From: a virus
Lineage: Duplodnaviria > Caudoviricetes
DNA length: 64,000 nt
Direction: 5' to 3' (one strand)
Virus record (IMG/VR): IMGVR_UViG_3300028804_000001
Coordinates: 161,629 to 225,628 of that record
Shown: one piece after another, positions 6,195 to 53,437 of the stretch
Layout: each line of letters starts with the position of its first letter
How positions within the stretch are numbered: position 1 is the first letter of the stretch
Translations under genes and position numbers: made by a program
Notes under the pieces: model-generated
What the model saw: the letters and a program-made list of their open reading frames with translations, nothing else
Told to the model about the DNA's origin: nothing
Database searches by the model: none

Positions 6195-9100
6195 TAGAAC
6201 TCCTCCACAAATTTACCATCGAGTAAACTATTAGCTTTGATATGATCCCAGATTCTAGAAACTAAAAGATCGTGCGAGTTATTAAATAAGTTAAGCAATG
6301 TTTCTATTCTAAATGCTGTAGCATTTGGTTTATTGGCCGGATCCTTTACATTATATCTACTACTATAGTATCTTTCTAATGTACGAGCTTCTATATCTCT
6401 TTCTCCATATTTCTGAACCCTTTCTTCAATGCTTGCCAGTCTCTGGAACTCTGCAATTAAGAATGCTCGTATCTTCTCTCGTTCATTAGCCAAACCATGT
6501 GCAGTAGTTGTGCTCTGTTCTGAACTGGTTATTGTGGTATTCTGATTATTATCTAGGTTCAAGTTCTTAAAAGCGTATACTTCCATTTCAAGATTTATTA
6601 ATCTTTTGGCTTCTATTTCTGAAAGTCCGGTGAAGCTTCGTGCTGTAAATGAATAGTTCTTTATCTCATTATATCTTCCCTGTATAGCCTGCTCATAATT
6701 TCCATCTAAAAGATATCTAAGAAGGTTAATACGAGAACCAATATAAATCATTGTCTCGGCATATAGAACATTCTTCCACTCTCCAACTGGACCCACATTA
6801 TCAATAAGATCCCTTTTTATCATCTCTGTAGTTCTTGCTGGATTTAAAGATTGTTGGGATGCAATTATTAGTGCCACTCTGTTGCTTACGCCATTCATTA
6901 CCTTTCTAGCTAAAGCTCCCAGGAATTTAGCTCTTTGTAGATCTGTTCCATCGCCCAGATTTATAAGAGTGTTGATGGCATCTCCAATTCTTGCAAAGAT
7001 ACTTCTTCCATATTTACGAGCTATCTTTCTGGTAAATTGAATGGATGAATCTGTGGCAGCGGCAAAAGATTTATCTGGCCTGAAATCCCTTACAAATGGT
7101 TCAAAGGTATCTGCGTGATATGTATAAAAGAAATCCTTTTTATTTACAGAAGCATCTACATACTCATGAAGCAAATGCGTATAGTAATTTCTAAATGGTG
7201 CACATTCACTTATATTACTAGTAATATCTCTAGCTGGCTGAAGATAAGATAAACCTTCTAATTGTGGTTCAGTGTAGATAAAGTAATCAACAAACTTATT
7301 TGGATTTAATGGCCTTGGTCTTGTATTTCTATCACCAGGTCTTGTTTTAGGTTTAGAAACAGGAGCACCTTGGAGCAGATCTTTATCTGCAGAATCTATA
7401 CTCCCATTTACTTTACTAGCCCCAAATACATCAGTTCCAAATGTTCTTCCATTGTTAGTATACGATGCAATTGTTCCAGCTGCATACATAATAGCTGGAG
7501 GCGTGCTATCGTCTACAGTTGAACTATCACTTCCACTTCCAGAATTAGTATACTGAGCATTGAATTCTTTTATATATACATTCCTTAACATCTCTTTAGC
7601 CATAGCTAAGAATGAGCCCTGGTTTAGAAGTTTAATGGCATTGCTTATATAATTAGAATCGGTGCTCTCTGCAGCTAAAGCAACTATACCTGGGATATTA
7701 AATAATCTGGTCTTGGCATACCCAACAATGAATACATATCTACCGATAAGTTTACTATAGGTAATACTCAAAATTACACATGGTAAGTTGGCAGTTAGAG
7801 TTCCAAACTTATGCTCGAATGCTATAAGTCTAAATGTATTATTTGCTTCCTGGCTTGTTAGATTAGTTAAAACATCTCCATTAGAGAATACTCCATTACC
7901 AGATAGCCCAACTACTGGAAATGGAATTGCTTCTACCTGTCCTATAACGGAATCTTTTCCTTCGAATAATTGCGAAAACATAGTATCGCTAAGAGTTATA
8001 TTCTCCTCTTCCCCATAATTCCAACTAAAAGTAGAAGTTATTGGATAGTGATCAGAGAATTCTATGGCCTGTTCAACTACAGGAATAACTGGAAAGTTCC
8101 GGGGATTAGTAATGATATAATCTTGCTGAACTGCTTGTTTCCATTTTCCCATCCTCTGTTCCCTAGACTGTTGATCGGTAACAGCATCTGGATTATCATT
8201 TGATGATAATGGTAAAACTCTTACATTAATTAACCATCTATCCTCAATGTCTAAAGGATTATTTGGATCTTCTATTCGAGGGATAAAGGCCTGAAAACCA
8301 TCATAATACTCATCGATGATTTTATTAGTAAGGTGGTTATAACTATAACTTACTTTGGTTCCAGTCTTAAAGAAATGATAGCTATAAAAAATATGATCAA
8401 TAGTTGTGAATGCTGACTCGATCCCATTAGCTGCTGCAGATTCTTCATAGAATGTTCCATACTGTCTTCTATATGCAGCTAGCTCACCTGATCTATTCTC
8501 GTTAGTTGGATTAGGAGCAAACTTAGGAGATAGAGCGTTGAACATTACCAGGCGACGCATTTCCTGAAATCGTTGTTCTACTTTATCATCAGAACCATAT
8601 TTAAGGTAATCGGAATAAAAGTTACCTGGCCCATAGAAATAATCTTTTAAGTTAACACCAAAATTAATTTTATTAATACTATTGGGATCATCTGCATTTG
8701 CAAGAAGACGCATAAGATCTGGATCTTCACATGTAATAATATCCATTGCATACTGGAATAAACCAGTTAGATTAGGATCTGGTGTAGTATTAGATAGTGA
8801 TTGTCTTAAAGATCGAACCCCTCTCTCTTGGAAAGTTCTAGATCTTTCATCCATTACTCTAAATACAACTTTGGCTGCTCTACGAGTAGATAAGTCTTTC
8901 TTAATAACAAAGTTGCTAAAACCTTGAAATCTTAATTCATCAAGTCCGGATGACTCGGGATAATAACTATAGTTAAAGTCACCAGCTACGATATATGGAA
9001 TATCTTCATTTAAAGATAATATCTCCTTTAGAAGAGCCACAGATTCTAACTTTCTAACTTGTTCTGTAATGAAACCAGAATCAGTTACGTTTGTTGATAA

Positions 9101-11272
9101 ACCTTCTCTTGCTTTAAAGTGGCAACAGTAAAGGGCTAACTTATTACCATTTCCCCTGCTTAGCATTACCTTAAGAACTGGCCTTAGATTAAAGTCAGGT
9201 CTCGTTTGCCCTTGCTGGTCTAAGCTTAATGATTTAATACCAGGTGCAAGATTCTCTGGATAGAGAACTCCACTCTCATTCACTTCAATCTTTAGCTTAG
9301 TAAGAACTCCAACTGTTTGTATTGTAACTCCAGCTGGGAAAGAATACGCTTCGTATTTTATAGTATCTATCTCATTATTTGGATGGGGCTCTCTGATTTT
9401 TCTGGAAGCGATACTGTTAAGCATATCTCTAAACATATGCAATGCTAGAGATTTATTTCCCATTTCCTCGAGTATGATTATATCTGGATTCTGATCATGG
9501 AGAAATTTAGCGAATAAGAATAATCTATCCTGACCTACTTCTTGATCTACCAAACCTTGTTCGTTCATCCCAGGGATACCAGTGGACTTTTCAGTGAGGA
9601 CAAGGTTCTTAAGGTTGTATTGAACTATCTTTAGATTTTTTCTCTGATTATAATCTCTTTGATGTTTAACCTCAATGGAGTCATCAATTGCTACTGCAGA
9701 ATAATTTGGATTATTGGGATACTTGAGTTGAATAAACTTACCGGGTATCTTCTGCGAGTTTAAGTTTATTGTTCTACTAATCTGTGGAACGGTAGCCATC
9801 GACTGGTTCTTTCTTATAGCCGAACCAATATCATATTGAATACTATCTCCAAGAGTCTTACTAAGACTTCCTATAGCATTTAAATTATAACTAAGATCCT
9901 GGCCTACGCCAGAGTTTAAAATAAAACCATGATCGGTAGATTCTTCTGCAGAAATAGAAAACTTATCATTTAGAAAATATGGAGCTATGGATATGGCCCC
10001 ATTTTTAATATCTTCTACAATAACTGCATGTGCGTGATCTGGATTAGGAACAGTTAGACCAAGAGCTTTAAGCTCACTTTCAAATTCATATACTGTCGTA
10101 TTCTGTATATTAGTATGATCTAAAAGAGAATAACTTAAAAGATTATCATCTCCGGCCATATTAATTGGGCCATCATAGTCTGCTAGATCCTGGAGCCCAA
10201 ACATCCTGGTGATCTTATCTATCAGTTCGTTATCACCTTTATAGGCATACTCAAGAGCTTTCTGATTTACTAACTGAGTCTTTACTCCATCTTCATGTTT
10301 AACATACAGAGGCCGTGTTCCATATGCTGCTACTGTTGAGATAGCCCGCACAACAAAGATTACTTCAAATGCACTCTTCTTATCTCGAATACTTTGTATT
10401 GAGAAGTCAATAAGCTGAATATAGAATGGGACTTCCCAGTATGCTTTATTGAGAAGGAATTCTTTAAGCTGTGTAATTCTATCTACTGTTATCTCTCCAA
10501 AGTTATCATCCATGCCAAAGTATTTGGCCAGAGTTCTCATCTCCTCTCCGCCGATATTACGAAGTGCAGGAGAATCTGCAATAGGAGAATCGGCTAATTT
10601 AAATAGTTGGTCTAATTGGAGATTCTTTGGCGTTGGTAAAAAATTGCCCTGGTCATCAAGATGACCTTTATTATACAATAAGTAGAGATCAATGTTATCA
10701 TCTATTGGAGTAACAATCCTCTGTAGATCGGCGTTGTGTACTGGCAAGAAGGGAGCCAGCATGAACTGAGCCATTAGAGGACGAATATTATTATGAATGG
10801 ATAATGCGTTACATTGAAACTTAAGAGTGAATACTTTATCAATAGCCTTGTTGCGTTCAATAATGACTGCTGCAGGAGCTCCGATAGAGTCCCCCGTCAT
10901 TACATTGTTCTCTGCACCTACACTAAAGCCGGTAAACTTTTCCAGGGGATCCCTGGTCATTGAGGACTGTAGTCCTATCTTATTTCTAAACTTATCTTCA
11001 TCTCTCTTATTAAGATCATTAATAAGTTCTTTGGTAGGATCTACCCATTCTGCTCTATCCTGCTCGGGACGGATGTTTACGGATATGATGCGGCTAGGAA
11101 TACTAAGCCAGGTATCTCCAATCTTAATCGCAGATTGGTTCTCCTTAGTTCCAAAGGTCTTTTGGAGGATTTCATCTATGATCTCTCTATCAGTTCTTAC
11201 CTGATTAAGTGCAATAGCATCAAAATCAGATGACTTGAATACAAGATCCTCTATTCTGTTAGGGACTTCCAT
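6194..11272 (-). CDS. 1692-aa virion/baseplate-region protein with an internal exonuclease-endonuclease-phosphatase (EEP, DNase I-like) domain
   Basis: EEP motifs in the correct order: KIVQYNLKNL, PDIIILEEM, LYCCHFKA, YIVAGDFN, TIDHIFYS, FSDHYPI (about 8030-9634). The flanks look structural and the gene lies among tail genes. Confidence 0.8.
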   Translation of the reverse strand: MEVPNRIEDLVFKSSDFDAIALNQVRTDREIIDEILQKTFGTKENQSAIKIGDTWLSIPSRIISVNIRPEQDRAEWVDPTKELINDLNKRDEDKFRNKIGLQSSMTRDPLEKFTGFSVGAENNVMTGDSIGAPAAVIIERNKAIDKVFTLKFQCNALSIHNNIRPLMAQFMLAPFLPVHNADLQRIVTPIDDNIDLYLLYNKGHLDDQGNFLPTPKNLQLDQLFKLADSPIADSPALRNIGGEEMRTLAKYFGMDDNFGEITVDRITQLKEFLLNKAYWEVPFYIQLIDFSIQSIRDKKSAFEVIFVVRAISTVAAYGTRPLYVKHEDGVKTQLVNQKALEYAYKGDNELIDKITRMFGLQDLADYDGPINMAGDDNLLSYSLLDHTNIQNTTVYEFESELKALGLTVPNPDHAHAVIVEDIKNGAISIAPYFLNDKFSISAEESTDHGFILNSGVGQDLSYNLNAIGSLSKTLGDSIQYDIGSAIRKNQSMATVPQISRTINLNSQKIPGKFIQLKYPNNPNYSAVAIDDSIEVKHQRDYNQRKNLKIVQYNLKNLVLTEKSTGIPGMNEQGLVDQEVGQDRLFLFAKFLHDQNPDIIILEEMGNKSLALHMFRDMLNSIASRKIREPHPNNEIDTIKYEAYSFPAGVTIQTVGVLTKLKIEVNESGVLYPENLAPGIKSLSLDQQGQTRPDFNLRPVLKVMLSRGNGNKLALYCCHFKAREGLSTNVTDSGFITEQVRKLESVALLKEILSLNEDIPYIVAGDFNYSYYPESSGLDELRFQGFSNFVIKKDLSTRRAAKVVFRVMDERSRTFQERGVRSLRQSLSNTTPDPNLTGLFQYAMDIITCEDPDLMRLLANADDPNSINKINFGVNLKDYFYGPGNFYSDYLKYGSDDKVEQRFQEMRRLVMFNALSPKFAPNPTNENRSGELAAYRRQYGTFYEESAAANGIESAFTTIDHIFYSYHFFKTGTKVSYSYNHLTNKIIDEYYDGFQAFIPRIEDPNNPLDIEDRWLINVRVLPLSSNDNPDAVTDQQSREQRMGKWKQAVQQDYIITNPRNFPVIPVVEQAIEFSDHYPITSTFSWNYGEEENITLSDTMFSQLFEGKDSVIGQVEAIPFPVVGLSGNGVFSNGDVLTNLTSQEANNTFRLIAFEHKFGTLTANLPCVILSITYSKLIGRYVFIVGYAKTRLFNIPGIVALAAESTDSNYISNAIKLLNQGSFLAMAKEMLRNVYIKEFNAQYTNSGSGSDSSTVDDSTPPAIMYAAGTIASYTNNGRTFGTDVFGASKVNGSIDSADKDLLQGAPVSKPKTRPGDRNTRPRPLNPNKFVDYFIYTEPQLEGLSYLQPARDITSNISECAPFRNYYTHLLHEYVDASVNKKDFFYTYHADTFEPFVRDFRPDKSFAAATDSSIQFTRKIARKYGRSIFARIGDAINTLINLGDGTDLQRAKFLGALARKVMNGVSNRVALIIASQQSLNPARTTEMIKRDLIDNVGPVGEWKNVLYAETMIYIGSRINLLRYLLDGNYEQAIQGRYNEIKNYSFTARSFTGLSEIEAKRLINLEMEVYAFKNLNLDNNQNTTITSSEQSTTTAHGLANEREKIRAFLIAEFQRLASIEERVQKYGERDIEARTLERYYSSRYNVKDPANKPNATAFRIETLLNLFNNSHDLLVSRIWDHIKANSLLDGKFVEEF

Positions 11273-11391
11273 TAACGCTTAATAGTTCTAACTGATACTT
11301 CTTCCTGGGCCATTGCTTCTAAAGTAGACTTTATCTTATCCTCTATACCTGGTTTATACTTATCTGCTGGAATCTGGATTATAAAGCGCAT
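11272..11391 (-). CDS. Small 39-aa hypothetical protein (MRFIIQIPADKYKPGIEDKIKSTLEAMAQEEVSVRTIKR)
   Basis: Below the ORF-track cutoff. ATG at 11391 is preceded by GGGA; its TAA overlaps the next ATG (TAATG at 11272); fills an otherwise empty gap. Confidence 0.6.
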   Translation of the reverse strand: MRFIIQIPADKYKPGIEDKIKSTLEAMAQEEVSVRTIKR

Positions 11392-11487: not shown

Positions 11488-14400
11488 TTATTGTATACGT
11501 ACTCCGTAAGAGGACTTTTGTTTAAAGTTCTGATTACGGGCATGGTCCTTTTGTTGTATAAAAGTTCTATTCTGCTGCGCATACTGCATTGCTGTTGCAA
11601 CATCTACAGCTCTATTTGGATCCGCGGCTTCTACCATAGGAGCTCTAGGTTTCATATTCATCTCAGATTGTTTGCGGGCTTTCTTTTCCCAATACTCGCC
11701 ACCCTTACCCTGAGTTCTGTCTAGATCTGGAACAGCATAACCACTTAATAACTGGTTAATTCCCATGGCTAAGAATGTTCCAACAAGAGCACTCTTTCCC
11801 ATATTTTTCATTTCCAATGCTGTCGAATGATAGGATTTATTAAGGTTTAATCCTCCTTCTGCATGGCTTATACTATCCCAGTAATTATGAGATTCATGTT
11901 CATTACTCAGTTTAAAAAGCTCAGATACATCATCTGCTCTTTTATTTAAAAACCAGGCTGCTCCAGATATGGCAGCTCTTCTTGGAGCTCCGGCATGAGT
12001 TTCATTTATCCATTTAACATAACCATGGAGATCAAGCTCTCCATTACCGCGGAGATATTCATAACCCATTTCTGCAGATCGCTTCATTACTCTAAAGCCA
12101 CGATCAGCTTCAGCTGCTCCAGTTATTCTTAACTGAAGTTCTACCATTCCTTTACTAAGATCAAAGTCTCTCATCATACGAACATGGCCGGCTCTTAATT
12201 CCATACTGAGAGCATAATGTGCCATTAGAGTATGTGCACCTGCATTAGTAGCTCCCATCTTACTATAGTCTTCCATGTCGGAAGCCATCTGGGTTAGGAT
12301 AGCTCGTGAAAGGTTTCCAGCTTTAGCAGATCTGGATAAGTTCCTATAGTATTTATCTGATCCAAATCTCTCATAAGCAGAATGGAAAAACTTCTCGAGG
12401 GCTTCAGACTGGCTACCACCATGTTTTTCAACAACAGCATTTATTCTAGCCTGAAGATCTCCAACAGCAGGTCCTTTCATTGCTTGGATGTTTACATTCT
12501 TCATAGCTTCAAGAGTTGGAATTTCTCCATTCTGTGAAGCCATTAAAGATTTAATAGCCAGGTCACTTGATAGCATTCTCTTCTTAACAATATCTAGATA
12601 ACCTGAGTATCTCATACGGCCTAGATCCTTTCCAGTTCTAGCCATTACATTCTTTTCCCAGGCCCCAAGATCTACTTCGAATGCTCTAAAGTTAGATATC
12701 TGTCTTACAGTGTTCTTAAACTTATCCAAGCTATCTGGAGTTATCTCTGAAAATGGATTAGTAGGATCTACTAATTTAACATTCTTTGCAGCTTCCTGCA
12801 TCCGCTCTACAAAGCTTCTAATGATATTAGCAGAGCCGTGTTTCGATTGCATCGCCAATTGTTCTGCAGCCGGCCTTATAAATCTCTCTCTTAAAGTATC
12901 TATTACCTCAGTATTAAAAGATGATGGGATATTACTGGTCCCATATCTCTTCTTCATATCTTCTTTAAAAGCCTCTCTACTTGCAGCATGCTTAACTCCA
13001 GTAAACCAATTACGCTCAGCTACCTCTAGAGTTAGGTTTGCAAAGGTAGTATATTTATAAGGGACACCGGCAGCATCTTTAACTATTGAACTGGTCTCAG
13101 GACTTATTCTACCACGAAGATCACTAATAGGTCCAGATTCATCTCCAAGTTCCTGAAAGAAATTTTCCAATCTACTCTTCAAACCTTCAGAGGTTTTTTT
13201 GTATTTAGATGCTAGCTTCTCTCTAGCATCAGAAATAAAAGCAGCTTTGATAGCCCCATCATCAGCAGCTATCTGTGCAAATACCCCACCGGAACCACCA
13301 GCTCCAGGATGGTGCATTGTGGCTGTAAGCTTACCAGAATTCTGAGATAAATGTAATACTATCTTTCTAGAATCGTGATCTGCAAGACCATGGCTAATAA
13401 AAAATAGCTCATCTACATTAGCACCGGCTCTACCTTCCATCCTAGGTTTTAGGATAGATTTGGTGTATGTTTTAGTTAGATCCTCTATCTCTTGAGGAGT
13501 AGCTTTAATATTATAAAGATGAAGAGTGTCCTTAACATGGGAATCTATAACATCTTTAAGAGCAGTCATTTGGTAATATGCATTCTTTCCGATATCTGCA
13601 CTCTTGCGTAGCCATCTCTGGGTAGCTACGTTATATGATCTAAACGTACTCTCATTAGAAGGCTGATAAAGAAGCCGTTCTTGTAAAAGACCGGAAGCTC
13701 TTATCTGTAATTCATTCCTGGCATGCGCAAGCTTAACTGCCTTATCTTCTATTGTTGATATATAAAGATCTCTAGAACCTCTCCCAATATGATACATTAA
13801 GTCCGAGTCCTGGTCACCATCAGCCAGAGCAATATCTATAGATGATCCAAAGATCTGACCGTTATGAAGGCTGTTATCTATTCTAAGAAATAGCTGTCTA
13901 AAGTCAGTTGGACTGTAAATAGATTGTCTAAAGGATGTAAGGGCAATATTGATATTGCCCTTCATTATACCTCTTACTCTACGAACAGATTCATCATATA
14001 ATTTTGCCTTAAGAGAATTAGCACTCTCTGGATCCTGCAGAGACTTGATAAAATCTATAAGGCCCGTTTCTCTTTTAGATACAGAAGAACGTTTAAGGAA
14101 CCTTAATGCATTGTGAAAATCTTTGAGCTGCTTATGATCCTTAATCCTTGTGATATCTGTTTTCTCAAGATAGTCTATGAATGTTTGAAGATGACCGAGC
14201 TCCTTTACTTCATCCCATATAGGAGATACAGTATGTACACCCTGACCTTCGGATATATTCGTTGATATTCTAACAGCTTCATTAACAAGCTTTATCATTT
14301 TGTTAACTTTGGCAGCGTATTTATAAGCCTTTCTGCCACCATGGTCAACACCAAGCATGAAGCGAATTGCTTCTTCCTGATTCATAGTTATATAGCCGGC

Positions 14401-17400
14401 TGCCTGCTCAGCTGATATTGGTATAGAGCCATTTGTTCCAACCTTGGCCTGGATAGCATCTGATCGGAACATAGAATATGTCCCAGGAATAAGCTGCTTA
14501 TAACCTCTGTTTTCTATCTGGGTCCCTTTACCTGCCCCATGAGTCTTAATATACTCAGCTATACCATTGAGATCATTGGCAAACCCATGAATAATATCTG
14601 TATTCAGTTTTTCTAATGCGGAGAGAGTAGCGCCGTCTCCTTTATATGCTCTCTTAGATTCTGCTATATAATCTAGAGCAGATACCATTTGCATAAAACG
14701 CATAGCGACATCAGTTGATGAGCCTTTAGTTATTTTAGCTATTCGAGCACTTGCTATTTTCTTACCATCTACATTTTCCAGTGTAGCTTTTCTAACTACA
14801 TCTTCAATATCGTGATGGTTAAACTCTAATGGTGCTTCTAATATATTCCTATTTCCAAGACCGCTAAGCTGATTAACTATGGCTTCCGATCCTTCAAACC
14901 CACTTAATAAGATCTTAAGGGTTGCAGGACCTTTACCAGAATGCCTGATCACATCTTCTAAATTCTTTCGTAGTATGTTGAATTGTTCTACACCTATTTC
15001 CTTGGATGAATCGAATAGCTTAGTAGCAGCCTCAGTAATATTCATACTGGAAAGAGAATGCGGTCCTCGTATATTTCCTCTTGCTTCAGCTATAGTAGCA
15101 TCAATAAGATCTTTAAAATCTAAGAATTTATTCTGCTGGATTTCCCCAACTATTGCAAGAGCCCTATTTGCATCCCCACCTGCCTGAGCAACTGGATCAG
15201 TTAGAAATGGATTCCGCTTTGGATCAAACGAGCTTCTCTTTCTATCAGTTCTATAAGGATGAAGGAGCATGCTTCTAATGGCATTTCTCTTAACCTTAAT
15301 ATTACCCGCGGCAGATTTTATACTATCTGACATACTCTTGGCAGAGTCTAAGAATCTTAATTGAAAATCTATTTCCTTCTCGAGCCATAACTTTCCAGAA
15401 GCCATATGCTCCTGAACCATATTAGCTGCTGCTGGATTCCTTTGCTTTAAAAGCAGAAGGTCTCTCATGTTGAAATGTACATTGCTGGGAAGAACTCCGG
15501 ATCCACCACGCGGAAAGAACTTAGCAGTGGCATCAGTTCCATACATAATAGTATGAGTATGCTGTCCCTCTATAATCTGAATAGGAGAGAACATACCGCT
15601 TAAGGCAGATACATCTCTTTTAGCTTCTACCTTTAAATCGTGAGATCCAATATCTCTTATAAGCTCTACCGCTAATTTTGGAGCACCGGCACTCTGAGAA
15701 CCATAACGAAATTTATGAATTAAATCAGATACCAATTCTCCAGCTTCTACAAGTGGATGATATGTTCCTACTCTGGTATCCTTATCTATAGCTTTCTTAA
15801 CTATAGTTTCAAGTTCACTATTAAGCTTTCCTGGATTATATATATCAAAATCTTTTAAAGGGTTTAGCTTATCATCTTTCCCTATCTGCCATAAAACCGG
15901 AGCAGGCCCAATGACATCATCTATAAAACCCCCATTAGGTATTCCTCTTTTGAGATTAACTATAAAATCATACTCTCCGGTTTTATTTACTACAACGGGA
16001 GCAGCAGTGTAAAAATTACTAGCTATACTCTTTGCTCTTTCTACTGCATCTGCCAAACCTTGATTTGATTTGAGTAAATCGACAAATGATGATGTTCCTT
16101 TCTGAACTTCGCGTAATCCTCTCAAAGCCTGTATATTATATTCATGAGCACCAGCTGCATCTTTTGATATCTGAAATGGGGTAAGAGTAGATAAGAAAGT
16201 ATATTCGAGAACATACTTCTGTAGATTCAGAAGATTTGTTATTCTCTTACCATGAAAGTCTACTAACTTGAATCTATTTAAGAACCCTTCATTCTTTAGA
16301 TTTCTTAAACTCCATGCCTCTAGCCTGGGATTTCTTTTACGGAATTCTTCATATCTTTCTTTAAGAGCATTAACTGTAGCTCGCATTGTCTGGTTATAAA
16401 CATGAGTAATTACTCCCATGGTTTTATAGCCAGTTGTTCCTTTACTGGCAGTATCTGCTATAATGAACCCTCTTCTACCTCCAGATAATCCTGCAGCATT
16501 TGCAACCTTATTCAAATAAGGATCCTGCATTGCTACTTCAAACTCTCGAGTAGACATAGCAGCTTTTTCTACCACACCATAATGCTTGGCTTGTTTGTAG
16601 TCCCCATCTGGAACAGATTTAATAGCATCAAACTCCAGAGTTCTAATAGGTGGCTCTACATCATTATCTCCAACCGGCTGAGATCTTATGTGAGCTTTCC
16701 AGGATAGGAGAGACTGAGAGAATGAATTGAACTCCCATCCATTAGCTCCTCTTCGTGAGAATACTTCTACACCAGCATCTAGATTGTGTTCTTTGAATGT
16801 ACGACTAATATAACTTCTAGATACTTCTTTATCTGTTCTACTTGCAAGCTGCGCCTGAGCCGATTCAGTTTCGGTAATTAGTTTTTCTAGAAAGCTTCTG
16901 GCTCTATGGCCAGTTTTAATTATCTTACTCTCTCCTATTCCTTCAATAGCAAGTTCTATATCCCATTTACCAGTTTCTTTATTGATGAACTTTCTAAGAT
17001 GGAACTTTCCAGAAGAGGTAGTTGTTACTACGCCAGTAATGCCATCCTCATAACCATCTTTAGCTAACACTCTCAAAGCACCGTCTTCTACAGCAGACCA
17101 CTGGGCACCTCTCGAGGATACAATAGTAGCAACATTGTGTTGCACGTTTGATACAGTCTGCTGTAACCCATTTGCTATTCTTTGTCTTTGTACATCATCC
17201 AAAGATCTAAGAACGGAATTAAGCTCATCTGCTGGATCCCCAGTCAACTGGAGGAATCTTAATCTATGAGTCTTACTCCCAAAGTCGGCTTCTATTACAC
17301 TTTTCTTATTATCTATTCTATATGAGGGATAGGCTATAGAACGAATACCTACATTTCTATCTCGAACGTAGTTTGCATTGGTAGATATCCTGGTATACTT

Positions 17401-19830
17401 TCCAATCTCATCTGGGCTTACAGTATCTATGAACTCGCCAAAGGTCTTAACAAAATCGTCAAAGCCCTTAACTTTGGTCATGACTTTTCCGGCTTTAGAC
17501 TTGGCTCCATCCTGCATAGCCTTAAAGCCATTGAATAGATTTTTATAGCGTTTCAGAGCCAGAGAAGAGGCAGTTGCCATTCCATGTTCGTTATAATCTC
17601 TTTCGAACTGCATTCGAATGGCAGCCATCCGATTATGGATCCTACTGTAAAAAGCATCACTATAGGCCAATTGGGGGCCTTCAAACACTAGGGATACTTT
17701 CTTAAATACATCCGCGGTTGGATTTTCTTTATTCCTTGGAGCAGCAAATGTGAATTCAAAGGTCCTATTTCCGCCGGCACTTTGAATGGTTTTTGAATAG
17801 ATTTTTCTAGCTAATTGTGCCGAATCGTATCTAGACTGACGGGCATCCAGCCTATCCGTAATACGCTTATATCTGCTGTACACTATCTCGTTGAATGAAG
17901 GAGATACTCCTCCTTCTTTTGGTTCTACGCCCCATTTATTCTTTATACGATCTAACAAAAGATTATTGGCATCTATAGTCTTAAATGAGAACCCAAAATT
18001 AACTCCAGTTTGCATCATCTCTTTAACATGGCGTGCATACTTTGTGGCCATCTGATTAGACCATGGAGTAATCGATGCTACATTAAAAGCTCTAGGATCT
18101 GCAAGCTTTCTAGATCCTGGATGTCCTTGAATATCATCCGGGCTCATCTTAAATGACCAGCTAAATTGATCTTTAGTTCCTGATAATCCCGTGGGTATCT
18201 TCGGAACTTCATTTAGATGCCCTAGCTTACTGGTAAGGATATCATCCATCTTATGGAATAACTTATAGTGATCACTCCATGCAAACATAACATCTGCTGC
18301 CATACGAGATGCAGATGAAGCTTTTCCACCATTAGCAGCATAGTCTGCCCAGTAGTTTAAGAGCAAACCTCTCTTCTGCATATAGTTATGAAAACCAGTT
18401 CCAGTTAAAGCCTCTCTAAGATCTGCAGGCATATCTGGACTGGTAAGCATTTGTGCTAGAGGCCCTTCTCTAAATGATCTATCCCATTCATCATCTCCAC
18501 TAAGAAGACCCATCAATACATGTTCTGATGCAGCTTTCTTGGCATCGAAAGAAGCACGCATTACTCTAGCATCTTCGAGCCTTGCTTCTTCTTGTCCTAC
18601 ATCTATATATTTCTTTTCTCCATCTTTATCACGGTAAGATTTAACATCACCAGATCCACCTTCTACAAGTCTACGCATCATTCGGTAACTTAAGGATGAA
18701 TAGGTGGCAACTGAAGATCCTTCATATTCGCCAAAGAGAGTAGAAGATGCGCGCAATAGAGCTCCACCATTCTTAGTTCTCTTGGCTAGTTCTTCAATAG
18801 TTTGGCGCCCTCTTCCAATATTTTCCAATTCTGCTAAGAAGAATTGCGTGTAGCTCATATAACCAGAAGCTACAGATGTTTTACTTCCAGATCTAAGGAC
18901 GGCTCCCTGGAATCCTATTACTCCATTAGAATCTGAAGATATGACATTTATATTCCTGGGTATTCTCTTAGCACCAGGAACTCTAGGTATACTGCCAACT
19001 CTAGTCGTTACTTCGATATTGGCATTGTACATATCAAAGGATCCGTCTACTGGTACAGCAACATGAATCTCATGAGTAGATCCAGTAGTTCTATCTCTTA
19101 CTTCAAATGCGGTTATCTTAATACCAATCTGACGGGCTGGTAGTCTTCTTGCTATTGGTCCATTTTCATTAGTTACTAATTCATAATTGCTATGAGCATG
19201 CTTAGAATATTCATCAAGCATCATCATAAACTTTCTTTCTTCTCTAGACATCTGATCTGGAGTGATCATAGATGCCAGCTTCATTGGAGTATGTTCTATA
19301 CCACCGGCAGCTTCTGCAAGAGTCTTATCGAATGGACTCATCTTACTGATTACATATTCTTCTATAACTGCTTTTTGTTTTCCAGGATCGTTGGAGTATT
19401 TCTCCATTAAGTTCTTAAGTTCATCATGAGCTCCAGCCATAACCTCTTCAAGAGAGAGATTACTAAGCTGACCTTCATCACGTATGTTTCTTAAAAGCTG
19501 CGCAAGTTTAGGATCTCCTTCTACAGTATATCCGCCAGGAGAAGCCTCGGTTCTTTTAAAGAACTCCTCCCCTTCCAGGATGAGGGGATTCCTTTGTGGA
19601 TTTCTTTTACGCTCTCGCTCGGCATGAATCTTACGATATTCATCTTCAGCCTTCTTAACCATCTTTCCCTGTTGTTTAGCCATGGCATTTCTAAGTGCCA
19701 GGACACCAACAGGGACACCTACAAAATAGGCAAACTGCTGAAGAGGAAAAGCGGCTTTAGAGATAATCCCAGGATCTGTTGGATCATCTTCATTATCCGG
19801 TAAATCTACATTATGAAAGTAATCTTTCAT
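11488..19830 (-). CDS. 2780-aa giant virion protein, putative single-chain two-barrel (double-psi) RNA polymerase
   Basis: ADGDQDSD (DxDxD, nt 13801-13821) with an Arg 38 residues upstream (FRQS), like beta-prime R...NADFDGD; K-x7-K (IKSVPDGDYK, nt 16594-16620), like the beta-subunit lysine pair. TAATG-coupled to the tape-measure-like gene. Confidence 0.6.
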   Translation of the reverse strand: MKDYFHNVDLPDNEDDPTDPGIISKAAFPLQQFAYFVGVPVGVLALRNAMAKQQGKMVKKAEDEYRKIHAERERKRNPQRNPLILEGEEFFKRTEASPGGYTVEGDPKLAQLLRNIRDEGQLSNLSLEEVMAGAHDELKNLMEKYSNDPGKQKAVIEEYVISKMSPFDKTLAEAAGGIEHTPMKLASMITPDQMSREERKFMMMLDEYSKHAHSNYELVTNENGPIARRLPARQIGIKITAFEVRDRTTGSTHEIHVAVPVDGSFDMYNANIEVTTRVGSIPRVPGAKRIPRNINVISSDSNGVIGFQGAVLRSGSKTSVASGYMSYTQFFLAELENIGRGRQTIEELAKRTKNGGALLRASSTLFGEYEGSSVATYSSLSYRMMRRLVEGGSGDVKSYRDKDGEKKYIDVGQEEARLEDARVMRASFDAKKAASEHVLMGLLSGDDEWDRSFREGPLAQMLTSPDMPADLREALTGTGFHNYMQKRGLLLNYWADYAANGGKASSASRMAADVMFAWSDHYKLFHKMDDILTSKLGHLNEVPKIPTGLSGTKDQFSWSFKMSPDDIQGHPGSRKLADPRAFNVASITPWSNQMATKYARHVKEMMQTGVNFGFSFKTIDANNLLLDRIKNKWGVEPKEGGVSPSFNEIVYSRYKRITDRLDARQSRYDSAQLARKIYSKTIQSAGGNRTFEFTFAAPRNKENPTADVFKKVSLVFEGPQLAYSDAFYSRIHNRMAAIRMQFERDYNEHGMATASSLALKRYKNLFNGFKAMQDGAKSKAGKVMTKVKGFDDFVKTFGEFIDTVSPDEIGKYTRISTNANYVRDRNVGIRSIAYPSYRIDNKKSVIEADFGSKTHRLRFLQLTGDPADELNSVLRSLDDVQRQRIANGLQQTVSNVQHNVATIVSSRGAQWSAVEDGALRVLAKDGYEDGITGVVTTTSSGKFHLRKFINKETGKWDIELAIEGIGESKIIKTGHRARSFLEKLITETESAQAQLASRTDKEVSRSYISRTFKEHNLDAGVEVFSRRGANGWEFNSFSQSLLSWKAHIRSQPVGDNDVEPPIRTLEFDAIKSVPDGDYKQAKHYGVVEKAAMSTREFEVAMQDPYLNKVANAAGLSGGRRGFIIADTASKGTTGYKTMGVITHVYNQTMRATVNALKERYEEFRKRNPRLEAWSLRNLKNEGFLNRFKLVDFHGKRITNLLNLQKYVLEYTFLSTLTPFQISKDAAGAHEYNIQALRGLREVQKGTSSFVDLLKSNQGLADAVERAKSIASNFYTAAPVVVNKTGEYDFIVNLKRGIPNGGFIDDVIGPAPVLWQIGKDDKLNPLKDFDIYNPGKLNSELETIVKKAIDKDTRVGTYHPLVEAGELVSDLIHKFRYGSQSAGAPKLAVELIRDIGSHDLKVEAKRDVSALSGMFSPIQIIEGQHTHTIMYGTDATAKFFPRGGSGVLPSNVHFNMRDLLLLKQRNPAAANMVQEHMASGKLWLEKEIDFQLRFLDSAKSMSDSIKSAAGNIKVKRNAIRSMLLHPYRTDRKRSSFDPKRNPFLTDPVAQAGGDANRALAIVGEIQQNKFLDFKDLIDATIAEARGNIRGPHSLSSMNITEAATKLFDSSKEIGVEQFNILRKNLEDVIRHSGKGPATLKILLSGFEGSEAIVNQLSGLGNRNILEAPLEFNHHDIEDVVRKATLENVDGKKIASARIAKITKGSSTDVAMRFMQMVSALDYIAESKRAYKGDGATLSALEKLNTDIIHGFANDLNGIAEYIKTHGAGKGTQIENRGYKQLIPGTYSMFRSDAIQAKVGTNGSIPISAEQAAGYITMNQEEAIRFMLGVDHGGRKAYKYAAKVNKMIKLVNEAVRISTNISEGQGVHTVSPIWDEVKELGHLQTFIDYLEKTDITRIKDHKQLKDFHNALRFLKRSSVSKRETGLIDFIKSLQDPESANSLKAKLYDESVRRVRGIMKGNINIALTSFRQSIYSPTDFRQLFLRIDNSLHNGQIFGSSIDIALADGDQDSDLMYHIGRGSRDLYISTIEDKAVKLAHARNELQIRASGLLQERLLYQPSNESTFRSYNVATQRWLRKSADIGKNAYYQMTALKDVIDSHVKDTLHLYNIKATPQEIEDLTKTYTKSILKPRMEGRAGANVDELFFISHGLADHDSRKIVLHLSQNSGKLTATMHHPGAGGSGGVFAQIAADDGAIKAAFISDAREKLASKYKKTSEGLKSRLENFFQELGDESGPISDLRGRISPETSSIVKDAAGVPYKYTTFANLTLEVAERNWFTGVKHAASREAFKEDMKKRYGTSNIPSSFNTEVIDTLRERFIRPAAEQLAMQSKHGSANIIRSFVERMQEAAKNVKLVDPTNPFSEITPDSLDKFKNTVRQISNFRAFEVDLGAWEKNVMARTGKDLGRMRYSGYLDIVKKRMLSSDLAIKSLMASQNGEIPTLEAMKNVNIQAMKGPAVGDLQARINAVVEKHGGSQSEALEKFFHSAYERFGSDKYYRNLSRSAKAGNLSRAILTQMASDMEDYSKMGATNAGAHTLMAHYALSMELRAGHVRMMRDFDLSKGMVELQLRITGAAEADRGFRVMKRSAEMGYEYLRGNGELDLHGYVKWINETHAGAPRRAAISGAAWFLNKRADDVSELFKLSNEHESHNYWDSISHAEGGLNLNKSYHSTALEMKNMGKSALVGTFLAMGINQLLSGYAVPDLDRTQGKGGEYWEKKARKQSEMNMKPRAPMVEAADPNRAVDVATAMQYAQQNRTFIQQKDHARNQNFKQKSSYGVRIQ

Positions 19831-22800
19831 TATACTATTTCTATCGTAACCTGCATTGGGCCGTCAGATTGTTCAACACTTATTGTAGGCCGCATACTAG
19901 ACAGAATCCTCTGCAAATGAGCCTTTACCTGCTGCGCATCTACTCTATATGAATCCTTTCTTCTAGGACCGTCTATATCTTCTATAGTCATTTCAGGGAT
20001 ATGCATTCCCATACTCTGCATCTCTGCCATTCTTCTACGAGTCTTCTGCCATCCTAGGCCGGCATCTGTAGCATTAAGACCAGCATTATCCATCGTCTTA
20101 ACAGCAACATCTTCAAGAGGCTGATCGTAGTCTGATACAATCTTTGGATCTACTTTGTAATTACCAGAGAAAGAACCGGGTAAGTAATCTCTCTGAAGTC
20201 CCATTGATCTATCTGCCAGGATAGAAACTTCCTCTGGCATTACTCTTCTAAACTCAGATATGTTTGATGTATTTAATTCACTCAAGATATCATTTAAATA
20301 CATCCGTTCCTGTTTATTGGAAACAGAGGCTATCCTGGAATTTGTTATAACCTGATTAGATTCCAGGGTGGCAGTCATCGTATTCTTCATACGATATCTA
20401 TATTCAGAGGCGCCTGTGGAATCGTATAATTCCTTATAGCGTTCCATCTCTGCTTGATCGGCAGCAGCTAAAATCTGCCGCATCTTCTGGGTCTTATCAG
20501 GAATCCAGCCCGCACCATTAACTATCTGAGCTCCAGTAAGAGACCATGCAGTTCCAGCTAATCCACCAAGAGCTGCTCCTACAGAACCACCAAAAGCAAA
20601 GCCGGCCGTAACCCCAGATGCAGCAGCCTGCAATGGATCCGTCTCTCGAGCCATAAGGTTAAAGTATGGCGATACATATGAATCAATGGGATGATTCCAC
20701 GTTTTAAAAGATTGGCCATAAACCATATCTTCTTCATAAGCTTGGAGAGCTGTTTTATTACCTATGAACTTCCTAGTGATGGGGTTTCTAAATGTGGATA
20801 AATATTCCCATGCTCCACCAATAGCTCTCTCTAAAGGATTGTATTGATCATCTACTTCTCTCTGAGATGTTACTTCATCTGGAGTTAATGCATCTCCTTG
20901 ATTAAGGAATCTAGATTGCATGAAGTTCATGCTCTTTCTTTGCTTCTCTACTTGATCCAGAGTATCCTGGTATACCTGAATATCATTCTCATCAAGTAGT
21001 CCTTGATTCATTTGAGCTCTAACGATCTTAAGTGTGGATCTATACTGATCACTAAACGGTGCAACATCTGCCAGGATCTGCAGTCTATCTATCATGCTGT
21101 AGTTTATTCCTGGTGCTACTGGTAGACCTTCATCATATCTCTTCTTCATGGCAGTTAAACCTTTCTGCCTGTTCATTAAATCTACCGCGGATTCTTGTTC
21201 ATACTTATCCTGGTCGGCCTGAATAATCTCTTCTGTGGTATGACCTTGCTCATCAATACCAACAAGCAATCCTCTCTTCTGGCCACTTAATACCAGGTAA
21301 GCATTCATTGCTCCTTTAGATCCTTCTATAAATCCTCCGGCCTTAGCTAGATAGGGTGCAAACTTAACAGATACAATATCTCCAGAATCTGTTTGGTATG
21401 TAGCATCGGCATATGCTGTTAAGTTCTTTGATGTATCATATACAATACTCTGCTCTTTCATAAGCTTGCCTTCAGCTTTGATAAGAGCTAAGATTTCCTC
21501 TTTCTTCTCGTTTACTTTATCGGCCCATTGATATCTAGGAACAATTACCTCAACATCTCCTGAGTAGAAACCAATTGCATCCTTACTATTTACACCAAGC
21601 ATATCAGCTTCACCAGGAGTCGCTGGTGTGATGTTTCTTAGAGTCTCATATGCTTCCCCAGGTAATCTTGCTTCCCCCGCATCTACCTTTGAATATGGAT
21701 CCCCATGTTTAAAGTCGGTGAAGTATTCTGATCCCGGCATCCAGTTTGGCTGCAGGTTACGTACTGGATTATACATCTCATAATCTTTGGCCTGTCTAGG
21801 AAAGATACGACGGATACCTTCGGTAAGGCCCATAAGGCCACCGAGCTGCATATCCCAGAAGCTGCGCCCTAAGGATCCAATGTTTGGTGCATCTATCTCA
21901 GGAGTCTGAGAGAATAGCTGTTTATTGCCTGTAAATACGTCCTGAAGAACTTCAGCACTAAAACCTCTAAGACCTCCAACTTCCTTTAAGTTATAGAATC
22001 CGTGTGATAATCTACTCTCTATACTATCTCCTTCTAAAGGATCCCCATAGAAAGCATTCTCTACCATACTCGAGGCGCCCATACCAGTAGCTCTGGCCAG
22101 CCTTTGAGTTTCAGTTCCTCGGTTATGGATAATAGCATTAGCGGTTGCCTGTGCAGCTGCCTGTGTTCCAACCATATCCACATCATCTCGATGCATTGGA
22201 GTATTTCCAAGATTAACAAATGGTCCTATGATTGGTATGTTAGAGAATACTCCAGGAGCTGCAAGGGAGGGTCTAGAATAGTAGTGCTTCCTGTTATAGA
22301 CCGCGGGATCTACATAGCTCATCATCTCAGTCATGAGATCGCTTTTAAAGTTGGGAGACCAACGGTAGTCTGATCTCATCATTGCATACATATGCGGCCG
22401 GAAGTAACTGGTCTTATCGCCCAGGAACGAGTTACTACCCAGTTCCCAGAAGCGGGATGTTCTAATCTCTACTTCTTTTTCACCTTTGAATTCTGCTAAA
22501 GTTTCTGCTCGGTTCTTAGATATATCCCATTCTCCAAATAATCCAAGTGGTCCACCGCCCAGTAACATACCAACTGCACCACCGATAACACCACCAGTAA
22601 TCCCACCCCGAGCTCCACCAGCAGCAAATCCCTTTGTAGCTCCAATGACAATAGGGGCAAGACCTCTCAGAGCTCCAGATAAAGGAGAGCTAATAGATCC
22701 TGGTAGCCAGTTCTCTAAATACTTTGCAGTGCTCGTAACTCCAAGAGTATCAAGAACTCCCTGTGCACCTAAACGCATACCAGCATATGCATTCATTGGT

Positions 22801-25800
22801 AGCATATAGATTCCCTCTTTAAGAGGGGTATTGTCAAACAGGGTGCTGTTATCTATAATTCTATCTGCAGCAGTGAGGCCGGCAATTAAACCACCAACCG
22901 GTAGGATCCTCTTGGTAATCCACTTCTGGCCGAGCTCTCTATAGTTGGCATAATGATCTATACCAACTCCCAGGAGACCCATGGTCTTATTAAATGTCCC
23001 GAGAGCGGCTGCCATGAATTCATGACCAAGACCGGTATAGTTTGCTATCTCTTTTGGATTCTGCCCATTGGCATCATATAGCATGGAAGTCCTGGCAGTT
23101 CCAGAACCTTTATCTCCAAATAGAAATACAGTATCAGAAGAGAGAGGAGGATACTTATAACGTGTTGTGGACATGGATTTCATCATCTGAGATCCAGGCG
23201 CCAGTAACTTTTTAACTACCGCTTCCTCTTCCGGTTCTATCTTTAGTATTAATCTATTTATAACATCATTAACATTATCGTGAAAGTGTTCAGGTGGAAC
23301 GGTTAAATCTGGAGTTTGCAAACTCTTAATTGCATTGATCTGAGCATGCGACTTCATGATATTTGAATATGCTCTAATCTCAGTATCACTTCTATATCCT
23401 GCCTTACCCAATACCTTGGACATGGCATCTATGCCTTCGATTATATTACCCTGTCTATCAGTAGTCTTTGCACGCAGAGTAAAGTTATGAAGGAGCATTG
23501 ATTCGTAATCATCTCCAACACTGGAGGTGAAAGATTTACCAGTCCTGGTTAAAAGACTTCGTACGTCAGATGGATTGGTAGTTGTTATTAAATCTCTCAG
23601 CTGCTGAACGGCAGTTACCATGTCTTTGGACTTGTGAGACATTGCCCACTGTTCTACTTTAAGAAGCCTATCTATAGCTTCTGTAGAATCTTTAACACCA
23701 TGGAGGGACATACTGCCTAGAGTCTTCCCAGCATCTTTTAAACCCATAGCATCAAGGCTAGATACTATGTTTCCATAATGCTTACCTTGCATAGTTACAA
23801 AGTCAAACATCGAATGCTGGGAACTTACAATTGTATCTTCGAATACACTAAGTGCTGCTTTCTTAAACGTTTCTCCGCCTGGAGTCTTTGTTAGCTTTGT
23901 GAACTCTCCCTTTGCTTCTTTAGTAAACCATGTAACGGCGTTTCTAGGATTGTTCATCTTCTCGAAGAATCCACTTATCATTGAGAAGACACTCTTAACT
24001 CCAGCGGATCCTATATCCCATTTCTCACGCATGGCGTACGCCCACCCAAGAGCATCCTCTGTGGGTACTCCGTACATATGGGCCATATCTGCTATTTCAC
24101 CTGGACTCCTAGGTCTTGCGTAATTAACTCCAACATAATAGGATCCTTCTCCTTCTCCTATTTTCATAAACCCAATACCTCTGGCAACATGCTCTGCCAT
24201 ATTGGATTTATTATTCTCTACGAAGTGTTTTATCCTACCTCCACCTGCCAGGGTATATTCCTTACCAGAATGACCATTGAGTAATGTTCCATATCCATTC
24301 TCATCTATACGGAAGATACTTCCTTTCTCCAATGGGAGAATGCCTTGTTGGAGATTTCTAAGAAGTCTTTCTTGAAATGGCCGGCTTACATTAACCCCAC
24401 CGGTATTACCAGCATCAAACTTAATATCATTATGAGCTAACCATAGATCATCTAGAAGAGTCTTGGCATGAACTTTAACATCCTTGGATGGTCCAAGAAG
24501 ATCGGCCAATGCCTTCTCAGTCATAGGCCTGAGATCTCCATTAGCATGTGGATCTGCAGAGGCACTAAAGTTATCGAAGATAGTATTTAGATCTTTCCCT
24601 TGTAAAGATCTGGCTTTGTATTGTGGTGCAAATATCTGACGATTGGGAGCACCATGGATATACGATCTAGCAGTTCTGGTAAAGCTACTTCTAAGATAGT
24701 TAGCACCACCGGTTATAATCTTCAAAGGGGCCAGCCCCATTATATTAAAGTTATCAAGAGCATTAGCAGCAAGATCTCTAATCTTGCCCATGTGAAAAGC
24801 TCTAACATCAAATACCTGGCTTTCACCTTCTCCATATCTTATAAGACCACGATCTCTAAAATAGACATTAGCATCATTGGCAGCATGACTTCTAGAAAGT
24901 CCCAGAACTGCATCATTCTGAAACATATCTTTTTGTTTATCTGGGAAAAGCTTCTTAACCCACTTAACAATTCCTTCATCTTTCTGAATCATCTCTCTGT
25001 GTTGTCTAGCTAACTTAACTGCGAAGTCAGGAGTTAAATTAGCATGCGCATCTGCAGCAGATAAGATGCCTCGAGTAACATGTATATCTTCGCTAAAGAT
25101 ACTTCTCTTATTAAGCCTGAAGTCTCTATGCGCTTCGACTAGATCTTTTGCTCTTCTTCTAAGACCGCGGATATTTGTGAAGTCTTGCCAGTGCCTATTC
25201 TTAAAAACCTCCTGTTTCATATGGGATACATAACCCATATTCTCTCCAGCCTGTCGGCTTACAGCATTCATCCCATGGAAGAGAGCCATCCCAATAGGAG
25301 CCATTCTCCCTTTATCGATCATATGATGAACGAAGTTAGCTCTCATCTGCTTACTTACCATACGGCCGGCAGATGATAATGCACCGAATGCTAAAGAGAT
25401 AGGAAGGTAAGAAGCATAGTAATGTGCAAAGTTCATGTCCCGCATCTCGGGACTCTTTGTCTTATCGTATCTATAGATAGCATACATGACTGGCATAATT
25501 GCCAGTTCATTCTTTGCATAATCGAGGGCCCAGGTTCCTACTCTCTGGTTGTGTCCTCCACCTAAGAATCTACCAAGAGCTCTAGAAGTTTTAACTGAGA
25601 ACGGGGACATCTCACCGGCAAACTTCTCAGCTTCAGTAGCAATACGACGCATAGAACGGTATACAGATTGGTATTGCTTACGTGCTGTTCTAACAGCAGA
25701 TCTAGTTACTATATCGTTGAGTGGCTTACCACCATGCTCAAGTATCTCTTTAGTGAGAATGTGTTTCTTTAAAAGGTCATAGCCTATCTTCCGGGTAGCC

Positions 25801-51190: not shown

Positions 51191-51799
51191 TTATACCTGA
51201 TAGCGTACACTTATTTTTTCACCTTCGACCAGATAACCTGATTCAAATGTGAGAAGCGTTCCACTAATGGTATAATCGTAGCCAATTCCTCGTGTAAGTA
51301 CTAAACCGCGCCCAACAACAATTTCAGAATATAATATTGGTTGCTGAGAAATACTTATCTGGTTATTCGCAGCCTGTTCTGCAGTGATAATAAAAACTTC
51401 TGGAGGTAACCAGGTTGTACTTCCTCCACCACCTCCTGTCGAAGATGCAGCTAAAGTAAAACCAATCGCATCCCCATTTACAACAGAACCTTCTGATGCA
51501 ACATAGATAGTATCATATACAAAATAATTTCCGGGATCCGATACTAATCCAATCTTATAAATAACCCAGAAGTCAGGATTGGAAGTGGAGAATACTTTAA
51601 AAAACTTACCAAAGGATCCAGCTAGTAAGTATAACTCTCTATCAAGACTCTCAAGGTCTGTTTTAGAAACCATTACCTGAGTGACTTGCTTCGGATCTAC
51701 GTTATTAAAACGTATTCTCCCTATTGTAGGAGGCGCACTTACAGAATCTTCGAATAGATAAGGAAGTGTAAAACTAGATATCGAATCATCCAATGGCAT
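51191..51799 (-). CDS. Fibre-associated/adaptor virion protein (202 aa)
   Basis: Two small beta domains joined by STGGGGGS. The C-terminal GLVLTRG..YDYTISGTLLTF...GEKISVRY resembles the C-terminus of the 612-aa fibre. Confidence 0.55.
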   Translation of the reverse strand: MPLDDSISSFTLPYLFEDSVSAPPTIGRIRFNNVDPKQVTQVMVSKTDLESLDRELYLLAGSFGKFFKVFSTSNPDFWVIYKIGLVSDPGNYFVYDTIYVASEGSVVNGDAIGFTLAASSTGGGGGSTTWLPPEVFIITAEQAANNQISISQQPILYSEIVVGRGLVLTRGIGYDYTISGTLLTFESGYLVEGEKISVRYQV

Positions 51800-53385: not shown

Positions 53386-53437
53386 ATTGTACAATTAGCT
53401 TCAGCTTAGAAGATTATTTCGTACTTAAAGAAGTAAC

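Follow-up and report, generated by a model that had tools for sequence, protein, structure and literature searches.

The last 64 kb of the 225,628-bp single-contig record of an uncultured phage (IMGVR_UViG_3300028804_000001), hereafter the window (64,000 nucleotides), encode a giant protein of 2780 amino acids (aa), which we call P0001. It is fairly secure that P0001 is delivered with the virion and that it has a single charged centre under selection, which probably binds metal. Of the specific readings the best, which we offer tentatively, is that a very diverged two-barrel RNA polymerase (RNAP) may have its catalytic loop at this centre. An earlier note on this DNA had proposed just such an injected RNAP. 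An invariant Arg and Asp triad, their spacing and the gene context speak for it, while the lysines that it had also invoked did not hold and its tape measure found no support. The gene and the parts that matter here are as follows.

11488-19830, minus strand: P0001, an open reading frame (ORF) of 2780 aa with no Cys
19693-19734, minus strand: N-terminal hydrophobic segment FAYFVGVPVGVLAL (residues 33-46), within the conserved N-terminus
16594-16623, minus strand: IKSVPDGDYK (residues 1070-1079, with K1071 and K1079), not conserved
13780-13956, minus strand: residues 1959-2017, the best conserved internal block (identity 35-38% versus about 20% elsewhere)
13927-13929, minus strand: R1968, an Arg invariant in the alignment to the distant homologue P0003
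13801-13815, minus strand: D2006-Q-D2008-S-D2010, an Asp triad invariant in the same alignment
11632-11802, minus strand: residues 2677-2733, the C-terminal signature GKSAxVGTFxAMGINxxxSGYxxPDL...GGEYWExKAxKxSE...KPRxPxV, the most conserved part

The gene is real. The ORF was confirmed in the sequence, and P0001 is translationally coupled to a giant ORF of 2019 aa upstream (19830-25889): its ATG overlaps the stop codon of that ORF in the string TAATG, as the earlier note had said. All the strings quoted there are present in the protein, namely FRQS, DGDQDSD, IKSVPDGDYK and both hydrophobic segments. FRQS corresponds to residues 1967-1970 (nt 13921-13932) and includes R1968, and the loop IALADGDQDSDLM to residues 2000-2012 (nt 13795-13833) with D2004, D2006, D2008 and D2010. 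The range 13801-13929 of the earlier note extends from the codon of D2010 to that of R1968. The C-terminal hydrophobic segment ALVGTFLAMGINQLL occupies residues 2681-2695, and the segment 33-46 lies below the Kyte-Doolittle transmembrane threshold (1.6 over 19 residues).

The family of P0001 is extremely rare. Three relatives were recovered by all searches together. P0002 is 93% identical, P0003 (2542 aa) is about 21-25% identical and is the only distant homologue that covers the motif, and L002 is the C-terminal 316 aa of a third lineage, known from this C-terminus only. The proteins searched by word index numbered 5.8 billion, and phmmer was run exhaustively over 1.84 billion cluster representatives. 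Contigs from viruses, metagenomes and genomes were scanned with protein patterns and with a degenerate DNA pattern of the Asp loop, and four related viral records, reached via the capsid gene, were searched with a profile. No match to P0001 was given by tblastn of 50,697 phage records, and no paper describing the family was found in the literature. A phage in the sample of P0003 has a capsid gene 60% identical to that of this phage, and the C-terminal 630 aa of the 2019-aa ORF are 50% identical to the upstream giant ORF of the P0003 phage. Against these values the identity of P0001 is only about 21-25%, so P0001 evolves unusually fast.

If the protein changes so fast, then we can ask: Which residues have been kept? 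The mere presence of the proposed motifs is uninformative, as shuffled sequences indicate. DxDxD is expected 0.61 times in P0001 and turns up in 42% of shuffles; for R-x(33-40)-DxDxD the share is 21%, and K-x7-K was observed 17 times versus 15.4 expected. Overall, conservation between P0001 and P0003 extends to just 18% of Asp and 22% of Arg. R1968, D2006, D2008 and D2010, which the earlier note had named beforehand, are all invariant in P0001, P0002 and P0003, and at the average Asp and Arg rates the joint conservation of these four residues between P0001 and P0003 has p of about 0.0013. In addition, the single DxDxD of P0003 aligns to D2006-D2010. Selection acts on this centre. The flanking D2004 is not kept in P0003, and the second and fourth positions of the triad vary (Q and S in P0001, T and K in P0003).

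The full motif of P0003 is RHPQH-x33-GDTDKD. Its RHP fits the [RK]xP signature, whereas P0001 and P0002 read RQS, without Pro. Residues 1961-2040 form the best conserved internal stretch, with 35-38% identity over a background of ~20%, and the invariant positions of the internal block are R1968, D1976, F1977, R1978, L1982-N1986, G1991, S1996, D1999-L2002, G2005, D2006, D2008, D2010, L2011 and Y2013. Judged from the alignment, residues 1959-2017 are a candidate for the second half of a double-psi beta-barrel (DPBB-A), in the order strand, R, strand, strand, D-loop, strand. R1968 and D2006-x-D2008-x-D2010, 38 residues apart, would then be the Mg-binding loop of a very diverged barrel of the beta-prime type.

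The comparison with known enzymes included two validated virion RNAPs, gp96 of Thermus phage P23-45 and gp66 of Cellulophaga phage phi14:2, together with cellular rpoB and rpoC and two polymerase-like genes of the same genome, both located outside the window.

Genome 65110-67872, minus strand: L003, a fused beta-beta' polymerase of 920 aa with GDK...ILPDEEMP and RHP...GDFDGD
Genome 92785-95190, minus strand: L004, a protein of 801 aa with the polymerase-like motif VRYP...GDGDD

The first of these is recognised by Pfam Rpb2_6 (9e-10) and resembles a chain of the AR9 non-virion RNAP (3.5e-6). The second had no match in Pfam, PHROGs, PDB sequences or phage records.

The distance from the Arg to the first Asp is 38 residues in P0001, 38 in gp96 and 39 in gp66, while rpoC and L003 have 35. 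P0001 thus has the spacing of the validated phage virion enzymes, as the proposal of an RNAP would have it. Hydrophobic runs before the Arg, between the Arg and the loop and after the loop follow in the same order in P0001, rpoC, L003, gp96 and gp66. The best local hhalign matches of P0001 to L003 and L004 fall in the polymerase register, at E values of only 0.2-0.3, which is not significant. The motif of P0003 satisfies the filter [RK]xPx{20,100}DxDxD that was used for RNAPs by Chaban et al. (Suppl. Data 4; PMC10770324).

The presence of L003 also counts for P0001 as the virion enzyme, since phages with their own beta-beta' polymerase usually carry a virion enzyme as well, as is established for phiKZ, AR9 and P23-45. 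As a virion RNAP, P0001 would start phage transcription before the other polymerase gene or genes of the phage are expressed.

An Asp-rich loop could also be a structural Ca2+ or Mg2+ site. P0001 would then be an ejected or internal virion protein without polymerase activity, part of a DNA-ejection conduit or of a capsid inner body, whose conserved termini dock partners or the membrane; we consider this somewhat unlikely. The loop (DGDQDSD in P0001, FGDTDKD in P0003) has polar, variable x positions, as exposed cation-binding loops do, and the termini rather than the D-loop are the most conserved parts of the protein. Identity to P0003 is 40% in the N-terminal 40 residues and 65% in the C-terminal block 2681-2720, where many columns of GKSAxVGTFxAMGIN...SGY..PDL...GGEYWE are invariant in three lineages. 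However, a simple cation loop would not be expected to have an invariant Arg at 38 residues upstream or the RHP of P0003, and the loop of P0001 does not have the Gly of the classical calcium motif, DxDxDG. The dense invariant charged cluster (D1976, R1978, R1983, D1985, N1986 and D1999) looks catalytic rather than structural.

The same acidic and basic cluster, which extends over 1976-2013, would also suit some other Mg-dependent enzyme, a nuclease, phosphoesterase, nucleotidyltransferase or DNA-polymerase-like palm that is brought into the cell and acts on host or phage nucleic acid, and phages do eject nucleic-acid enzymes. We regard this as improbable. The string VFGDTDKDL of P0003 recalls motif C (YGDTDS) of family B DNA polymerases, and FGSS...D.D recalls the nucleotidyltransferase signature hG[GS]...DxD. 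But motifs A and C of a polymerase would need much more than the 30 residues that separate LDF from GDTD, P0003 has Ala where the GS signature has Gly, and no Pfam, PDB-sequence or profile match to any such family was found.

Several results weigh against a polymerase. A second, beta-type barrel with conserved basic residues, to be expected 100-400 residues upstream in single-chain enzymes, was not detected. The earlier note had placed the two beta-type lysines at K1071 and K1079, but in P0003 the first aligns to R and the second to L (IRVVTKRDNL), so that of the residues named for catalysis the Arg and Asp are kept in the distant homologue and the Lys are not. These lysines also lie 930 aa upstream of the Asp triad, while the barrels of known single-chain enzymes are joined by about 140 aa. 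The candidate regions for a second barrel, including residues 1425-1570 of P0001 and the C-terminus of the upstream ORF, had no match to rpoB, L003, gp96 or gp66. A second barrel may be too diverged for detection.

The loop itself is unusual. Its second and fourth positions are Q/T and S/K, variable within the family, and not the aromatic residue and Gly (Ile in gp66) of all validated enzymes compared, and P0001 also has no Pro in the place of the RxP Pro. We built a hidden Markov model (HMM) of the second half of DPBB-A from rpoC, L003, gp96 and gp66 and searched the phage proteome with it in leave-one-out fashion. Each of the four enzymes was recovered at 6.6-22 bits. P0001 and P0003 scored -4 or less, and this failure of the barrel HMM is what a virion protein without polymerase activity would also give. 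The low scores are due mainly to the loop positions just described and, in P0001, to the missing Pro. The invariant polar residues D1976, R1978, R1983, D1985 and N1986 have no clear counterpart in known barrels.

Structure prediction gave no fold evidence, neither on a double-psi barrel nor on a bridge helix or trigger loop. AlphaFold2 models had a mean predicted local distance difference test (pLDDT) of 32.8 for residues 1400-2400 and 34.4 for residues 1765-2050, from alignments of three sequences, and the two models disagree at the motif, helix in one and strand in the other. This low confidence reflects the shallow alignment, as three sequences are all that exist. Foldseek with the model of residues 1765-2050 found nothing, which at a pLDDT of 34.4 is uninformative. 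No shared promoter-like 12-mer was found in the genome, where none occurs more than six times. Moreover, the phage already has one sure polymerase (L003) and one possible one (L004), either of which could be the packaged enzyme.

Comparisons of whole families added little. P0001 and P0003 and their sub-segments matched nothing relevant in Pfam and PHROGs; searches of PDB sequences with three profiles gave chance matches only (Rad50, STP22, SOD); and the ESM Atlas feature search gave no usable match for P0001. By hhalign, P0001 had no significant match to gp66, gp96, rpoB, rpoC, L003 or L004 (E 0.2-0.7). This general lack of matches in Pfam, PDB sequences, hhalign and the Atlas belongs with the points against a polymerase. 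In the hhalign control, most pairs of validated enzymes were also invisible to each other. The validated gp66 and gp96 likewise have no Pfam family, and gp66 has no PHROG; a missing Pfam or PHROG match for P0001 therefore carries no weight.

P0001 stands in a row of giant ORFs at the downstream end of the window, which is one long minus-strand block. The row consists of ORFs of 2019, 2780, 39, 1692 and 3050 aa, ~29 kb together. The neighbours of P0001 in it are these.

19830-25889, minus strand: the upstream 2019-aa ORF, with no Cys and with Gly-rich hydrophobic stretches
11272-11391, minus strand: a 39-aa ORF between P0001 and the next giant, TAATG-coupled to the 1692-aa ORF
6194-11272, minus strand: a 1692-aa ORF with a weak endonuclease/exonuclease/phosphatase (EEP) domain (Pfam PF03372, E 0.0012), syntenic in three lineages
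1-6194, minus strand: the last 2064 aa of an ORF of 3050 aa (genome 158670-167822) that has an endolysin-like stretch and hydrophobic or transmembrane segments

In the three lineages the genes follow in one order: a giant upstream ORF, the homologue of P0001, a small ORF, the giant with the EEP domain and a further giant. In the contig of P0003 the place of the 39-aa ORF is taken by an ORF of 142 aa, and the weak EEP match is present there as well. The 1692-aa ORF is 31-32% identical to its homologues. Its EEP-like domain lies at residues about 545-770, has motifs such as IVQYNLKN, DIIILEEMG, CHFKAR and VAGDFNY and is conserved in three lineages. The product may be an injected nuclease or phosphatase.

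Cys is absent from P0001 (2780 aa), P0003 (2542 aa) and the 2019-aa ORF, while its genome mean is 0.88%; P0001 would be expected to contain about 24 at this mean. The two giants downstream of P0001 have 6 and 10 Cys. From the zero Cys, the conserved termini, the nuclease-like and lysin-like giant syntenic neighbours and the parallel with gp67-gp66-gp65 of phi14:2 we infer a packaged and expelled set of proteins. P0001 would thus be a fast-evolving, Cys-free giant that is packaged in the virion and, together with the DNA, expelled into the host. It would be one of a conserved row of co-delivered giants, with the 2019-aa protein, the small ORF, the 1692-aa EEP protein and the 3050-aa protein carrying the lysin-like stretch and membrane segments. 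Such ejection-like neighbours (EEP domain, lysin-like stretch, transmembrane segments) would equally accompany an ejected protein without polymerase activity.

The earlier note had called the upstream ORF a tape measure. This label found no support: the 2019-aa ORF has no Pfam match above threshold and no PHROG family, and no position between tail chaperones and a baseplate hub was made out for it, as about 28 kb with fibre, lysis and unassigned genes lie between it and the sheath gene. For P0001 itself a role as a tail-internal length ruler or scaffold, tape-measure-like or part of one split over genes, with an incidental motif, is very unlikely. It would agree with such a role that the ORF to which P0001 is coupled is likewise giant and Cys-free, with Gly-rich hydrophobic stretches, and that P0001 is encoded among the structural genes, downstream of the sheath gene. 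A tape measure spans roughly 1.5 Angstrom per residue, however, and at this rate a protein of 2780 aa together with one of 2019 aa would make the tail implausibly long. Between P0001 and the sheath gene there are about 35 kb, including fibre and lysis genes; P0001 has no tape-measure family match, and what selection has kept is a charged centre, not length or heptads.

The homologue of the 2019-aa ORF in the P0003 phage (L001:127-3258) contains an insertion of ~396 aa that starts with Cys and ends with THN followed by Thr, an intein signature, together with a faint LAGLIDADG match. The insertion lies between ...HHGDPF and TKIEMGEARLPG, which corresponds to GDPY|SK (residues 1399/1400) of the 2019-aa ORF, at about 21690-21695 of the window. 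The site is probably functionally critical. The intein at this site and a string GD..K...RLPGE had suggested the upstream ORF as the source of a beta-type barrel, as in a split rpoB-rpoC pair; this candidate had no profile support and was rejected.

P0001 is located in the structural half of the phage, which has a sheath gene. Fibre genes are also present in the window.

60630-62111, minus strand: capsid gene (Pfam Phage_capsid_4), with distant tblastn matches to jumbo myoviruses, among them 0305phi8-36 and ME3
54400-56904, minus strand: sheath-like gene, with one PHROG sheath match (1.6e-18)

It is this single PHROG match of ORF 54400-56904, at 1.6e-18, that speaks for the contractile tail named in the earlier note. 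Directly downstream of the sheath-like gene, an ORF of 293 aa (53498-54379) matches PHROG 'major head protein' (phrog_9206, 4e-33); with a separate capsid gene at 60630-62111, it may encode a tube, decoration or second capsid-like protein. In the tail gene block, an ORF of 531 aa (51799-53394) matches PHROG 1745, 'DNA transfer protein' (5e-92), and has a metallophosphoesterase-like stretch. The first 126 bases of the 225,628-bp record (genome 1-126) are repeated at its end (window 63868-64000), so that the record is probably a closed circle or has a terminal repeat. The CheckV completeness estimate is 83%.

It is useful to set P0001 beside the known virion polymerases of phages. In P23-45 gp96 a two-barrel RNAP of the virion is joined to the N-terminus of the tape measure (PMC10770324). 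As P0001 would be if it is packaged, gp96 is a giant protein of the virion, and its tailed phage likewise has a non-virion RNAP encoded separately; the two proteins share the Arg-to-triad spacing of 38, and neither has a Pfam family. In contrast, gp96 has a canonical DFDGD and RNP, its polymerase forms the N-terminal 1,200 residues of the tape measure, and its phage is a siphovirus, whereas P0001 is the product of a separate gene and has DQDSD at residue 2006. No sequence similarity could be detected between the two.

Another parallel is phi14:2 gp66, a crAss-like virion RNAP (PDB 6VR4; bioRxiv 10.1101/2020.03.07.982082). Like P0001, it is longer than 2000 aa, of mostly unknown fold, and placed within a row of giant proteins (gp67-gp66-gp65), which in phi14:2 are virion proteins. 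It also has a non-canonical fourth loop position (DFDID), a spacing of 39, and no Pfam or PHROG match. Unlike P0001, it keeps the aromatic second loop position and the RIP motif and belongs to a podovirus order with hundreds of homologues. Between the two hhalign gives nothing, and the leave-one-out HMM finds gp66 but not P0001.

In its logic this phage would resemble the jumbo contractile-tailed phages phiKZ and AR9, which package one polymerase and make another once the host is infected; L003 resembles the AR9 non-virion beta chain. In phiKZ and AR9, however, the virion RNAPs are recognisable beta/beta' homologues split over 4-5 genes, while P0001 is a single chain of 310 kDa. A split beta/beta' set of this kind was not found here, since the Pfam models Rpb1_2 and Rpb2_6, searched against the phage's own genome, matched L003 only.

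The virion RNAP of coliphage N4 is a T7-like single-subunit polymerase and not a two-barrel enzyme, and differs in this from what is proposed for P0001. It shares with P0001 its giant size (about 3,500 aa), and it is an ejected protein flanked by other ejection proteins (PMC13434306), as P0001 would presumably be.

If the RNAP reading is right, which we consider possible but short of probable, P0001 and its relatives would be a new family of giant tail-module virion RNAPs in uncultured jumbo contractile-tailed phages, with a loop G-D-x-D-x-D-L that has neither the aromatic residue nor the Gly. With the same reserve, such a family would be a second or third polymerase beside the fused beta-beta' enzyme, co-delivered with the EEP and lysin-bearing giants. 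Injected cell-type RNAPs, now represented by gp66 of crAss-like phages and gp96 of P23-45, would then extend to jumbo contractile-tailed phages. The near-universal D[FY]DGD loop would be rewritable further than is known. A phage with up to three distinct two-barrel enzymes would bear on polymerase evolution and on the independence of phages from host transcription. And should P0001 turn out not to be a polymerase, the four giants would still form a conserved module and an undescribed ejection apparatus, which occupies about 29 kb (13% of the genome) and is found in three lineages only among >15 billion database proteins.

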